A DNA stretch of 41,757 bases from Aulosira sp. ZfuVER01 (lineage in GTDB: Bacteria > Cyanobacteriota > Cyanobacteriia > Cyanobacteriales > Nostocaceae). A model generated the notes under the pieces. The model was not told the DNA's origin and did not search any database. It was given only the letters and a program-made list of their open reading frames with translations. This document shows positions 36,680-41,757 of the stretch, in pieces. Both the position numbers and the translations under genes were made by a program. The stretch lies in NCBI GenBank assembly GCA_034530615.2, contig JAVRCV020000018.1:1-41757 (forward strand), read 5' to 3'. The stretch's first letter is position 1. Each line of letters starts with the position of its first letter.

Positions 36680-37522
36680 ATGACTAATCTCCAACTCACC
36701 TCAGAATATAAATGCTTTGGTGGCAAAGTCGGCTTTTATTCTCACTTCTCCTCAACCTGTAATGGAGAAATGCGTTTTGCTATCTATCAACCACCGCAAG
36801 CTAGTCAAGAACCTGTACCAATTCTTTATTTCCTCTCCGGTTTGACTTGTACGGAAGAGAATTTTATTGTCAAAGCCGGGGCGCAACGCTACGCGGTGGA
36901 GTACGGTTTGATGCTAGTTGCACCAGATACTAGCCCTCGCAATACTGGTATTCCTGGTGAAGATGATGATTGGGATTTTGGTACAAGTGCGGGTTTTTAT
37001 GTTGATGCTACAGCACAGCCTTGGCGATCGCACTACCAAATGTATAGTTATGTCGTCCAAGAATTACCTGCTTTAATTACCGCAAAATTTCCTGTCCAAG
37101 CTGAAAAACAAGGCATTTTTGGTCATTCAATGGGGGGACATGGGGCTTTGGTATGTGCAATGCGCAATCCCCAGTTATATAAATCTGTCTCAGCTTTTGC
37201 TCCCATCACTGCACCTACACGCTGTGCTTGGGGTCAAAAAGCATTTAGTGGTTATTTAGGAACTAATCAAGAAGCTTGGCGGAGCTATGACGCTAGTGAA
37301 TTAGTCAAGCAAGTGGGGTATCATAGCCCCATTCTGATCGATCAAGGGACTGCTGATAAATTTTTAGCCGACCAATTACTACCAGAAGTGTTTGCACAAG
37401 CTTGTGCAGAAGTGCAGCAGCCCCTAAACTTGCGTTATCAAGAAGGCTATGACCATAGTTATTATTTTATTGCCAGTTTTATTGAAGACCACATTCGCCA
37501 TCATGCGATCGCTTTAAGTTGA
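36680..37522 (+). CDS. fghA: S-formylglutathione hydrolase
   Basis: [42 protein letters not shown]. Confidence 0.96.
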
Positions 37523-37597
37523 ATTTTTCCTGCATCCCTGCGTCGGCTGATCCAAAGGTTAGGTACTTATAAAAATTACAAATTACAAATTTAAACG

Positions 37598-37903
37598 CTA
37601 CACTACACCAGCTTGAAAAATCTGAATTGGGGTGAGATTCAATTCTGGAAAAGTTTGGGAGACTATAACATCACGATCTCGAAACTTACTTATCTGATAT
37701 TCTCCATCCACTAAGTTACAGACAGAGATTGTCGGTTGTTTGGGGTTGCCGATAAAATTGCGTCCACCCAACGCCGCATAGTCTATAATCCAGTATTCCG
37801 GGATACCCATCTCTTCATAATCAGCATATTTTAAATGGTAATCGTCCCGCCAGTTGGTTGATACAATCTCAATTTCTAGTAAATTTTTTGGGCGTTGCTC
37901 CAT
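37598..37903 (-). pseudogene. 5'-truncated Uma2 family gene
   Basis: Only the C-terminal half is present: EIVSTNWRDDY...YEEMGIPEYWIID...SQTFPEL. Confidence 0.75.
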
Positions 37904-37960
37904 AGGTTGTGTCAGTTGTAAAGTGAGATTACCGTATACTTATACCTAGAGGAGACAGTC

Positions 37961-38872
37961 ATGTCTGCAAAGCAACCTTTAGTAATTGACTGTGCAGATT
38001 GGAAAAATCTTCTGGCAAATCCGCCCCTCCTTACCAGTTTTCAATCAGGTTGGAATAACATTCATCTTGCCCATCTCCGCCAACCATCAATTGATCTTCC
38101 TGAAGTATCTAGCCCTCAACACACCATCTTTATTGCAATAGGACATCAGACAGTTGATTTAGAGATTATCACAGAGGGACGCTTGCAAAAAATCTCGTTT
38201 AGGGACAATGACTATACCAGTGGGTGTATTGGAATCTTTCCTGCTGCTCTACCGTTTAAGATTCATACTACTTCAACTGTTAACGCAATAGAAATGATTC
38301 AGTGTTATCTAGAGCCTGCATTCTTGGCTCAAATAGCGTATGAATCAGTGAATCCCGATCGCGTCGAACTATTGCTGATCCCCAAAAAAGCTGATTTGTT
38401 GATCCAGCAGATTGGTCTGGCACTCAAGGCAAGTTTAGAGGTGGATGGGGTGGGCAGTTGTTTCTACGCTGATTCAATGGCAACAGCGCTATCAGCTCAT
38501 CTGATACGCCATTACTCTACACGCACTCATCGGTTTCAAGACTATGAGGATGGGTTGTCTAAACAAAAGCTCAAGCGAGCAATTGAGTATATGCAGATAC
38601 ATTTGGGCGAGGATCTATCCTTAAATGATATTGCGAATGAACTTGGAATGAGCCAGTACTACTTCTGCCATCTATTCAAGCGCTCGACGGGTATGTCTCC
38701 TCATCAATATCTGATTCGGCAACGAGTAGAACGGGCAAAGCAGTTACTTAAGCAACCAGAACTAACCGTTGCCTCAATCGCAATGGAGTGTGGTTTCGCC
38801 AGTCAGAGCCATTTTGCCAAGTATTTTCGTCAATTTACAGGGATGAACCCGAACCAGTTTCGCAAGTTTTAG
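37961..38872 (+). CDS. AraC family transcriptional regulator
   Basis: MSQYYFCHLFKRSTGMSPHQY...ECGFASQSHFAKYFRQFTGMNP double HTH; AGGAG RBS. Confidence 0.95.
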   Translation: MSAKQPLVIDCADWKNLLANPPLLTSFQSGWNNIHLAHLRQPSIDLPEVSSPQHTIFIAIGHQTVDLEIITEGRLQKISFRDNDYTSGCIGIFPAALPFKIHTTSTVNAIEMIQCYLEPAFLAQIAYESVNPDRVELLLIPKKADLLIQQIGLALKASLEVDGVGSCFYADSMATALSAHLIRHYSTRTHRFQDYEDGLSKQKLKRAIEYMQIHLGEDLSLNDIANELGMSQYYFCHLFKRSTGMSPHQYLIRQRVERAKQLLKQPELTVASIAMECGFASQSHFAKYFRQFTGMNPNQFRKF

Positions 38873-38906
38873 CAAGATTTTGCTCTAAATCGCAAGAAAA
38901 TGGAAG
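38872..38906 (+). promoter_or_regulatory. Putative AraC operator (GCAAGA direct repeat)
   Basis: GCAAGATTTT at 38872 and GCAAGAAAAT at 38892, 20 nt apart, right at the araC stop codon. Confidence 0.5.
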
Positions 38907-39435
38907 AATTTATTTTAGCAGTTGGTTAGAGTGCAATCAACTGAGGATGCGATCAGTCGTTCCCTCAGATTTGTATAGTGCTAGCAACTCTTCTTTCGTG
39001 AGTAGCTTCTGGCAGTGTTGCGGCAATTCTGGCCCCCGACTCCTGTTTGAAGGAGATCTGGCGGCGGTTTAGAGGGCGATCGGGTTTCTATTTGGGAAGA
39101 CGAAAGGTGGGTTCTTACCCCTCTTGTGTCAGACTGGGAAAACCCAATCGCTGAAAGCATGAGCGGAGCTTTACTTTTCAGCTTTTGGCTACAAATTTTA
39201 GTTTCTATTAGAAAATAAAAGCTCAAAGCTTAATTAGATAAAAGTTCCAGTGTTTCGCTACGATTATTGTTTTCCGGAAGTGACAACACAGGGTTACATA
39301 AGTCTTGCACCCTTTAACTTTCAATCTCCTCTCTCCAACCGCTAGGTGTCCTGTCTTGCGCTCATGGTTGAGGACATAAACCTCCAGCCTAGGCTGACAG
39401 ACAACTAAACATAAAGAAAAGATAGGGATATCACA

Positions 39436-39948
39436 ATGCACAAGCCTTTAAGTACACATACGATACGGTTAAGTGCTGTGCTATCTGCACTCTCAATTTC
39501 GGTTTTTACGAGCGCCACCACTGCTGCACCAGCACCAATCCAACGAATTGCTCATATAGGGTCAATCAACGGAACTCTTTCTTGGCGCAAGGGCGAAATA
39601 TTTGTTCCTTCGGGTACCATAGCTGCCCCTGGTATCAAAAGTCCAACTCTTCAAGACCAAATCAACTTACATGCCTACATCATCAAGGTCATTCCAGGGT
39701 CAGATGGATCTTTCGGTACCGTTCAGCGAACGCAAGTCGGATCTGAGCCGAAATACGGCAGAGCGATCGCATCAGGTGACATTGTTAGCGTTCAATATAC
39801 AGTAACAGCCGTGCCGATCGGCACAGCCATTCAGATTAACACCAAGGACAGCCTTTTCAGCCCTATCGGTGCTGCTAATGTTATCTGCACAGTGGAAGCC
39901 CCAGTTGTTTCCAACTACGACCTTCGCTATCAAGAACCACCGAGATAA
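39436..39948 (+). CDS. Secreted hypothetical protein (putative cassette 1)
   Basis: Signal-like N-terminus LSAVLSALSISVFTSATTA; AGGGA RBS; beta-rich; followed by an attC-like site. Confidence 0.7.
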   Translation: MHKPLSTHTIRLSAVLSALSISVFTSATTAAPAPIQRIAHIGSINGTLSWRKGEIFVPSGTIAAPGIKSPTLQDQINLHAYIIKVIPGSDGSFGTVQRTQVGSEPKYGRAIASGDIVSVQYTVTAVPIGTAIQINTKDSLFSPIGAANVICTVEAPVVSNYDLRYQEPPR

Positions 39949-39996
39949 ACAGACTAGTACGACAGTAGCCCATGAATTTTCCAAGCGGCGACATCA

Positions 39997-40089
39997 GTCT
40001 AACAACGCCCATACACACCGACTGTCGAGAGTTGGTTGGCTACAATGCAAGGGCTATCTATGGTAGGTGGGTGATGAACAACGTTAGCT
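39997..40089 (+). mobile_element. Integron attC-like recombination site (93 bp)
   Basis: R'' GTCTAAC, 5-nt spacer, L'' CCATACAC ... L' GTGATGA, 5-nt spacer, R' GTTAGCT; L''/L' pair with one extrahelical base and one mismatch. Confidence 0.75.
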
Positions 40090-40121
40090 GGCTGTACACA
40101 CCTTAAAGTGAATAGACATCT

Positions 40122-41222
40122 ATGGAACTCGAATCGATCATTCGCAACTTGCGCAAGATAAAAACCTGGATTGTTGCATTTGTGTTACTTGCATCGTTAT
40201 CATTTGGAGTGGTTGTTTTCGCTGCTGATGATGACCAGGACGATGCGACGCTACGTGTCATGACCCAAAATTTATTTATGGGCACAGATTTTCCAGAACT
40301 GATCGCCGCAAAGACATCTGAAGAATTCATCCAAGCTGTCACAACGACTTACAATAATGTTATTGCAACTAAGCCTGCCGAACGAATGGCTGCGATCGCT
40401 CAGGAGATTGCCCAGCGAAAGCCCGATCTCATTGGTTTGCAGGAAGCTGCTATCTTGCGTACTGGTTCTCCGGCTGCAACCAATGTCAAATTCGATATGC
40501 TTCAGATTCTGCTTGGGGAACTCAATAGGCTAAGGCAGCCTTATACCGCTGTTGCTATTCTATTGGGTCTTGATGCTGAAGCCCCTAGTTCAAGCGAAGA
40601 ACTGGGTAATGTTCGCTTTACGGTGCAGGACGTGATTCTTGTCCGAAACAACAGTCTAGCGGGTAAATTTAGACTATCGAACGTTCAAACGTCTCCTTAC
40701 AAAGCACAGCTCACAGTACCGACGGCTATTGGTCCAATTACAAATGTAGCCGGTTGGGCTGCTGTCGATGGGCAAGCTGGTGGTAGGGGATTCCGATTTG
40801 TGACGACCCATTTAGCGATTACTCCCAACTTTGATGCCACTATCGCATTGGCACAGGCACAGGAACTTAGAGATACCGCAGGTAATACAAGCCTGCCCGT
40901 AGTGTTTGTGGGAGATTTTAATTCAGTAGCCAGTGATAGAAATAATCCAACCTTTGCGACCTATAAAAGTTTCCTTGATGCTGGTTTTGCAGAGATCTGG
41001 CTCCAAACACGATCCGTTGATCCAGGTTTCACTTGCTGCCAGTCCCCTAACGTTAGAAATTCTGCATCTTCTTTGAGTCAAAGAATTGATCTTATCTTCG
41101 TCCGGGGGCAGATTAGTGGTATTAACGCGAGTCTTGTTGGGGACAAGCAAAATGAGCGCACACCCTCTGGCTTGTGGCCATCCGATCACGCAGGAGTTAT
41201 AGCGAAATTGAATGGAGTATGA
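40122..41222 (+). CDS. Secreted endonuclease/exonuclease/phosphatase (EEP) family protein (putative cassette 2)
   Basis: VMTQNL, DLIGLQE, VTTHL, VGDFN, RIDLIF, SDHAGV; N-terminal signal/TM segment. Confidence 0.9.
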   Translation: MELESIIRNLRKIKTWIVAFVLLASLSFGVVVFAADDDQDDATLRVMTQNLFMGTDFPELIAAKTSEEFIQAVTTTYNNVIATKPAERMAAIAQEIAQRKPDLIGLQEAAILRTGSPAATNVKFDMLQILLGELNRLRQPYTAVAILLGLDAEAPSSSEELGNVRFTVQDVILVRNNSLAGKFRLSNVQTSPYKAQLTVPTAIGPITNVAGWAAVDGQAGGRGFRFVTTHLAITPNFDATIALAQAQELRDTAGNTSLPVVFVGDFNSVASDRNNPTFATYKSFLDAGFAEIWLQTRSVDPGFTCCQSPNVRNSASSLSQRIDLIFVRGQISGINASLVGDKQNERTPSGLWPSDHAGVIAKLNGV

Positions 41223-41225
41223 AAC

Positions 41226-41319
41226 AAGTGGGCGATAGCAGGTTCCTGATGTCTGAAGAATTGTTGCTAGCTGGCTCCCAATAAATGTTACTTGCCGCCG
41301 CTCACTTTAGCCGTTAGCT
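41226..41319 (+). mobile_element. Second, partly degenerate attC-like site
   Basis: AAGTGGGCG (41226) pairs with CGCTCACTT (41299-41307), 5-nt spacer, then GTTAGCT (41313); no R'' box at the expected position. Confidence 0.55.
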
Positions 41320-41416
41320 GGCTGCAAACATTTGACGGTTGTTCATATCTATGAAAAGTATTTGCGACACAACCACTAAAATTAGTTCCACCAATTTATG
41401 AAAGGAGAAAATAAAG

Positions 41417-41757
41417 ATGAAACGAAGCAAACTGCTATGTTTGGTGGTCTTGGCATTGCTACCAGCTATTTTTTGGATGAATGGAAGCGATAGTAAAGCG
41501 CAAGGAAGAAGCCGCAGTCGATCCAAACTCCCTGGAACCATCTCTAAGCCACAAGAACAATATTATCGACTCCAACTAAAGCATGGTGGTCAATTTTTGG
41601 ATGCCGATCATTGCTCAACAACAATCAGCTTAAATCCTGGTTCTGACTATGAGGGTGGAGCGTGTGAACTGTGGAGACTTGTTCCCAATGGGGATGGATG
41701 GAATCGACTCCAACTAAAGCATGGTGGTCAATTTTTGGATGCCGATCATTGCTCAAC
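41417..41757 (+). CDS. Secreted ricin-B / beta-trefoil lectin-like repeat protein, truncated by the window end (putative cassette 3; not in the ORF track)
   Basis: AAAGGAG upstream; MKRSKLLCLVVLALLPAIFW...YYRLQLKHGGQFLDADHC...GACELWRLVPNGDGWNRLQLKHGGQFLDADHCS; 46-aa repeat. Confidence 0.8.
   Translation, partial: MKRSKLLCLVVLALLPAIFWMNGSDSKAQGRSRSRSKLPGTISKPQEQYYRLQLKHGGQFLDADHCSTTISLNPGSDYEGGACELWRLVPNGDGWNRLQLKHGGQFLDADHCS

Follow-up and report, generated by a model that had tools for sequence, protein, structure and literature searches.

Several described systems come close to an integron without an integrase. For clusters of attC sites lacking the integrase gene intI (CALINs), loss of intI is one of four listed origins, and intI pseudogenes were reported near 15 of 279 such clusters (PMC4889954); IntegronFinder 2.0 applies a two-site rule to them (bioRxiv 10.1101/2022.02.28.482270). 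Single attC sites with neither another att site nor an integrase gene nearby are classed as SALINs (bioRxiv 10.1101/2022.09.11.507474), and in the sedentary chromosomal integrons of Xanthomonas large intI deletions froze the array, with repeated, lineage-specific loss (bioRxiv 10.1101/2025.06.18.660453). Cyanobacteria are named among integron hosts (PMC4889954), and the attC-taxa pipeline includes a separate attC model for them (cited in bioRxiv 10.1101/2025.06.18.660453); a study devoted to Nostocales integrons was not found in our literature search, from whose reach subscription journals were mostly excluded. Here we describe an integron-derived locus of Aulosira sp. ZfuVER01 (Nostocaceae). 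The window, i.e. the whole stretch of 41,757 nucleotides analysed, is the complete contig C18 (JAVRCV020000018.1) of an 8.0-Mb genome in 83 contigs, 99.99% complete. A first-pass annotation made from the letters alone had described positions 39436 to 41757 as an integron-like cassette array that carries only secreted proteins and has no integrase in view. Genomes, contigs (of this genome unless another is named) and loci are referred to below by G, C and L numbers.

The locus derives from a chromosomal integron and works like one; it is no longer complete and is likely inert. It comprises, in this order, an intI stub, an AraC gene, a miniature inverted-repeat transposable element (MITE), open reading frame (ORF) 1, attC1, ORF2, half of attC2, and ORF3. 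Our overall reading, held with a probability of roughly 0.7, is that of a chromosomal integron remnant with intI reduced to a stub of 10 codons, its attC sites worn or halved, and its genes likely fixed and probably expressed from the AraC module. That the locus is an integron relic is close to certain and its present immobility is very likely; the capture of ORF1 and ORF2 as cassettes is rather probable, and expression from a candidate AraC promoter is tentative.

The locus resembles CALINs formed by intI loss (PMC4889954) in its attC sites on one strand less than 4 kb apart (here 1.2 kb, one full and one half site), its few cassettes of unknown function and its lack of a functional integrase. 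It differs from them in having one complete site only and an N-terminal stub that is invisible to the search for the IntI C-terminal domain used in that study. The name CALIN, given in the first-pass annotation, holds insofar as no intact integrase lies nearby, but with one full and one half site it is borderline under the two-site rule. Large intI deletion and repeated lineage-specific loss are shared with the frozen Xanthomonas arrays; intI sits at one locus there, whereas relics of it occupy several chromosomal places in this cyanobacterial genus. As with a SALIN, a strict scan yields one full attC, and other solitary sites exist in the genome; unlike a SALIN, the site is adjoined by the half attC2 and the intI stub. 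Complete Nostocales integrons, which we identified for example in G109, G029, G151, G061 and G133, share with the locus the attC family (84–91 bp), the intI start and the divergent layout, but they possess a 320-aa IntI, a promoter/attI region of 280 bp and attC sites that fold well. Neither an intact intI nor an attI between intI and the first cassette is present here. As such, the locus is one more decayed integron, a common fate that has already been described.

The attC sites were judged against a reference set of 26 full-length sites from 10 loci of related cyanobacteria, each locus next to an intI gene or intI fragment, assembled independently of the window: a family-agnostic geometry scan of 16 loci adjoining intI genes or fragments gave eight seeds, and these led to the 26 sites. 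The training sets did not include the G025 integron, whose high GC content sets it apart. In the reference sites the attC stem shows covariation: of 520 cells, 84% are paired and 81 are changed on both sides, a level reached by none of 500 shuffles, and slid controls were 26–47% paired. The covariance model was built from these sites only, and attC1 was not in its training. A further profile and matrix of 62 sites include loci retrieved by window queries, for which reason the window scores from that set, and its count of 7 of 62 for the junction sequence discussed below, are partly circular; the conclusions rest on the 26-site set.

With this model attC1 scored 37 bits over the full model length (E 1.3e-7) and was the sole significant match in 49.8 kb, made up of the window, another locus and 4 kb of C60; the next match reached 11.4 bits. 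Genome-wide it is one of four matches (E 2.1e-5). The 93-bp element shows the boxes that had been described for it, with inverted R''/R' and L''/L' pairs and extrahelical bases, and is homologous to sites in arrays: over 89 nt it shares 79% identity with an attC of the complete G133 integron, and identities to attC sites elsewhere range between 74 and 79%. It begins 48 bp past the end of ORF1, and ORF2 begins 32 bp past it, a cassette-like spacing. The departure of its R' box from consensus, listed earlier as a caveat, is no defect, since three of the 26 reference sites also have GTTAGCT as their R' box. Nevertheless, attC1 is worn: its bottom strand has a minimum free energy of -4.3 kcal/mol against -8.2 to -18.5 for the references (weakest of 27), it has A at the extrahelical position where all 26 have G, and it carries a 4-nt insertion.

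The second element is half a site. It matches model positions 50–85 only (20 bits, E 0.0055 genome-wide with the profile) and lies below detection by the covariance model. The paired L boxes once ascribed to it are not there, R'' and L'' both being absent; the remark that it lacks R'' was correct, the whole 5' half being missing, and the 59 bp after ORF2 are unlike attC. Its best BLAST match among 251 genomes, 97% identical over 33 nt, is an attC in the array of the intact intI of G029. Both junctions continue identically, as had been observed, with CGTTAGCTGGCT at 40082 and 41312, the only two occurrences in the genome; GTTAGCTGGCT continues R' in 2 of the 26 reference sites, and the shared junction is a trait of the attC family. 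The claim of attC-derived elements in an integron-related locus is thus upheld, by the covariance model for attC1 and by the profile match for attC2.

A new finding is an intI stub, overlooked in the first-pass annotation, which was right only in that no intact integrase is in view. It lies 2.1 kb from attC1 on the opposite strand, and so in divergent orientation and less than 4 kb from the attC sites. In a comparison of intergenic DNA with 86 loci, 36 of its 39 bases agreed with the beginning of an intI gene (E 1.4e-9 in 538 kb), and with a profile of 12 intI starts it was the best match in the genome (28 bits, E 1e-5; next 12.8 bits). The ORF at 37598-37903 on the minus strand reads as the IntI N-terminus for 10 codons and continues as the C-terminal half of an Uma2 protein; homology to full-length Uma2 orthologs (83–93%) ends at 37873/37874, or at 37866 in the most distant of seven. 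No intact intI exists in this genome: the proposed genome-wide search for IntI-type recombinases returned nothing over the cut-off (best TIGR02249 score 26.5 bits against 265), and tblastn with a relative's IntI found only a weak 56-aa match on another contig. Since the stub stands in cis and no intact intI is present, the locus reads as a decayed complete integron and not as an array mobilised in trans. TIGR02249 exceeds its cut-off in 11 of 201 family genomes, this one not among them, and 9 of 14 genus relatives hold intI fragments only, of which the longest has 360 of about 960 bp. G003 retains the final 48 codons of intI, which end 37–38 bp before the orthologous Uma2 and encode 48 residues that all agree with those of a complete IntI; G009 and G013 have the same junction.

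The fusion, whose junction has at most one base of microhomology, is most simply read as a single deletion that took out about 1.3 kb between codon 11 of intI and the middle of Uma2. Cutting of its own gene by IntI was considered and rejected: although the junction falls at a G-TT within intI, the Uma2 side is not compatible with this, and no breakpoint motif is common to the further intI relics examined. A 10-codon N-terminal stub fused to a neighbouring gene escapes profile searches, and some CALINs counted without an intI relic may therefore be decapitated integrons. Among genus and family relatives (L319-L327, L025-L038), intI relics with internal deletions are frequent, at several chromosomal places, and in G012, G009, L026, L032, L036 and L038 a residual intI piece is joined directly to promoter repeats or attI.

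The attI region is missing as well and has been replaced by AraC-leader DNA. In complete integrons about 290 bp of promoter and attI follow the intI start, whereas AraC begins here after 57 bp; an attI profile found nothing at the locus, and its best match in the genome had an E of 6.7. An attI remnant in 37913-37949 was considered, but the two short similar words were not significant. In the relatives the promoter/attI region of about 290 bp is conserved across Nostocales and holds several imperfect palindromic repeats (L018-L024, L029, L033, L037), with an attI core ending in TAATAAATA-GTT; a description of this region was not found in the literature searched.

We propose that an active IntI would once have inserted cassettes at attI, probably AraC with ORF1 closed by attC1, then ORF2, and last ORF3, whose attC would have been lost. 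The 1.3-kb deletion would then have taken intI from codon 11 through to mid-Uma2, a separate event would have removed the promoter/attI region, and the sites would have decayed after the loss of intI and attI. The intI-Uma2 junction is not a misassembly of the contig set at hand: a single contig of 5,798 bp covers 37400-41594, with the junction and both attC elements, and shows zero differences in three of three runs (one study, possibly the source of this DNA).

Table 1. Coordinates of the integron relic and its neighbouring features in the window
Feature	Position	Strand	Description
Uma2 3' half (PF05685, putative restriction endonuclease)	37598-37873	-	in-frame behind the intI stub
intI stub	37874-37912	-	first 10 codons (37874-37903, ATG at 37903) and 9 bp of leader
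attI/promoter position	37913-37960		48 bp where complete integrons have ~280 bp of intI promoter and attI
AraC-family regulator	37961-38872	+	assigned by Pfam and orthologs
Post-AraC conserved stretch with GCAAG repeats	38873-38933	+	candidate AraC-controlled promoter
MITE-like insertion	39119-39293		175 bp, imperfect terminal inverted repeats, 4-bp target duplication TTAC
ORF1	39436-39948	+	170 aa, likely secreted, small unnamed family
attC1	39997-40089	+	full-length degenerate attC; R'' 39997-40003, R' 40083-40089
ORF2	40122-41222	+	366 aa, likely secreted endonuclease/exonuclease/phosphatase (EEP)-family enzyme, PF03372
attC2	41282-41319	+	3' half only; L' at 41298, R' 41313-41319
ORF3	41417-41757, ends on C60	+	likely secreted ricin-B-type (beta-trefoil) lectin, PF14200

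The three ORFs are co-oriented and unrelated, as had been claimed, and the signal peptides ascribed to them are borne out in that the most hydrophobic 11-mer is N-terminal in each; the score is crude, and 1,120 of the 4,825 ORFs of the genome (23%) pass the same test. Signal peptides are enriched among cassettes (16.1% versus 6.8%; PMC10661359). Within the integron arrays of the relatives (29 sites, 8 of them without an ORF) a signal-peptide-like start was found for just 1 of 21 cassette genes, which makes three secreted proteins out of three untypical of these integrons. AraC orthologs occur in 10 of 200 family genomes; six of the seven closest are accompanied by a co-oriented gene with a signal-peptide-like start within 4 kb, and it is the first such gene in four of the seven. 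Secretion as a trait of the integron is therefore not supported (1 of 21 cassette genes against six of seven ortholog loci), and that all the cargo is likely secreted is probably owed to the AraC module upstream rather than to integron selection. AraC is possibly the first gene of a cassette of regulator plus target. The stretch behind it is conserved behind its orthologs and has been copied before downstream genes in G017, G027 and G011; AraC proteins bind direct repeats.

Several observations weigh against the reading as a decayed integron with captured genes. G011, a fourth relative with the locus of G009 and G013, shows no intI piece. The R and L boxes of attC1 are still able to pair (probability 0.044, rank 22 of 27, with 21 of the 26 references higher and 5 lower), and hence the site is not proven dead. 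AraC orthologs lie mostly outside integrons, three of the seven behind an ATP synthase operon, and attC is found downstream in just two (G017 and G108, related loci sharing a neighbour gene); a scan for promoter consensus gave nothing above shuffles (5 versus 7.6). No homolog of ORF1, ORF2 or ORF3 was seen as an intact cassette. Among 160 loci of ORF2 homologs (at most 69% identity, the 77–78% identical relatives being left out of the count; 131 with enough downstream DNA) none has a cyanobacterial-type attC beside the gene, and eight show loose generic attC geometry only. Lastly, 37913-39436 contains no convincing cassette start matching the R'' of attC1; the two one-mismatch hits fall in the AraC-associated stretch and in the MITE.

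These points could be accommodated by a mosaic, in which the relic is real but AraC is no cassette, and neither are some, or even all, of the genes for secreted proteins, an AraC-secreted module having landed in the locus or recombined with it and replaced attI and the 5' half of attC2. We regard this as unlikely, albeit worth weighing. Five of the seven AraC ortholog loci precede secreted genes without any integron, AraC-leader DNA stands in place of attI, the 59 bp after ORF2 are not attC-like, ORF2 homologs are ordinary chromosomal genes and ORF3 has no attC. However, attC1 lies at cassette distance from both ORF1 and ORF2, three unrelated genes are separated by two attC-derived junctions, and putative regulator-plus-target genes (so labelled from N-terminal sequence) also precede attC in complete integrons of relatives.

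The reading as a relic with captured genes also has a bolder form, doubtful at present, according to which AraC regulator-promoter modules act in Nostocales as self-contained, inducible substitutes for the integron cassette promoter. If true, such a domesticated array would outlast intI and attI, its captured genes for secreted proteins (a phosphoesterase, a lectin and an unknown beta-rich protein) forming a signal-controlled operon whose products would perhaps act at the cell surface in a root habitat. The combination of this AraC subfamily with secreted-protein genes and attC relics suggests a route by which integron cargo could remain expressed after the platform has died.

Excision requires two foldable sites, or attI plus attC. 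ORF2 has no complete right-hand site and ORF1 no left-hand site, so that no gene is flanked by two competent sites and the locus is likely immobile. It is accordingly very unlikely that we are dealing with a recombination-competent CALIN, or with serial insertions at genomic attG sites, which an integrase could mobilise in trans. The retained pairing in attC1, the IntI matches over the cut-off in other family genomes, and three further scattered full-length attC-like sites, as expected of genome insertion (bioRxiv 10.1101/2022.09.11.507474), would suit this option, but the stub shows that intI was lost in cis, neither this genome nor the 14 genus relatives hold an intact intI, attC2 is half a site, attI is absent and C60 has no further sites. 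The earlier suggestion of mobilisation in trans is hence not supported, with no intI over the cut-off here, fragments only in 9 of the 14 relatives, one site worn, the other halved and no attI. Nor does the array continue past the window, as had been supposed: the window ends with its contig, C60 carries the end of ORF3, and profile and matrix searches of its first 8 kb found no attC after ORF3. A chance resemblance of the motifs in ordinary intergenic DNA can be dismissed, for although unconstrained folds of both elements are no better than shuffles (z +1.44 and +0.45 for the two strands of attC1), Rfam has no relevant family and a repeat finder gave no signal of note, the independent model scores, the neighbouring intI stub and the 74–79% identity shared with attC sites elsewhere have already refuted it.

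As for the genes themselves, ORF1 has no match in Pfam, NCBIfam or PDB, a scan of close relatives returned none and the Atlas gave no usable match. Among 1.84 billion sequences, 12 other representatives were retrieved at E<=0.001; this family (P0001, P0122-P0133) consists mostly of secreted beta-rich proteins with single or tandem domains and has invariant G, W, Y and P columns. In ORF2 the catalytic-type motifs are invariant in 11 aligned relatives, and none of 300 genomes of the order has a homolog at E<=1e-30. ORF3 is present in one of 250 family genomes. None of 150 matches listed from 14 genus genomes, the 25 weakest being left out, covers any of the three ORFs. Together with the scarcity of ORF2 and ORF3 this marks the ORFs as foreign to the relatives; in the proposed comparison of cassettes with related strains no close homolog with DNA context turned up. 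Another EEP-family gene, likely for a secreted protein and 41% identical to ORF2, lies at C79:83894-84925; it too is absent from the 300 genomes, and an attC half before it was considered and rejected (E 0.73, matrix score -3.5).

ORF3 runs off C18 inside a 138-bp repeat, which caused the assembly break, and stops about 100 bp into C60. It contains about three near-identical 46-aa repeats, nearly identical also at the DNA level (41565-41757 and C60:1-107), and depth ratios of 2.6–3.6 in the core and 1.7–2.4 in the linker point to three. Its best PDB match is the designed ThreeFoil (E 2.3e-23), and judged from its repeats the protein seems to be a naturally occurring beta-trefoil lectin with almost perfect three-fold symmetry, of interest for the evolution of symmetric folds. 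The C18-C60 join is confirmed by read-contig loose ends and fits the finding that the ortholog of C60:6058-6537 is the gene on the far side of the intI fragment in G003. Between ORF3 and this conserved flank, C60:1076-5964 holds an Hsp70-like gene and a TPR gene (Pfam), together with a gene of 753 aa whose start we take to be caspase-like; they are absent from the corresponding place in G003.

The AraC subfamily often lies behind an ATP synthase operon (L064, L341-L346), with the gene end and the following 60 bp duplicated. The duplicated end precedes variable secreted-protein genes, such as those of lectins and pentapeptide proteins, and these loci are a possible hotspot of secretion genes. 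The MITE sits between the post-AraC stretch and ORF1; it is the single full copy in this genome, and many copies exist in G005, G007 and other genus relatives, where all three copies examined have a TTAA duplication. Degenerate attC sites upstream of ORF1 (near 39337) or within 38873-39111 found no profile or matrix support, and a 21-nt match to a cassette leader reached an E of 0.057 only. The excluded G025 integron (L039, G025:C14), which has attC sites of 133 bp and a divergent IntI (62%), lies inside a genome of the same family and may be contamination or a recent transfer.

Further copies of the elements, for which a genome search had been proposed, do exist. Solitary attC-like sites lie at C34:126239-126324, C32:38263-38349, C22:63763-63843 and 70019-70080, as well as at C53:122120-122186, C80:43075-43160, C83:6891-6957 and C6:102886-102964. 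They are scattered and mostly worn or partial, three of them passing the covariance model at E<1e-3 as full-length sites. In L003, L004, L005, L008 and at C83:4250-6957 of this genome, whole or truncated attC sites repeatedly stand before the same type of gene, presumably PEP-utilising-enzyme-like by its N-terminus and sometimes separated from attC by a small reductase-like gene; this pairing is possibly a domesticated cassette.

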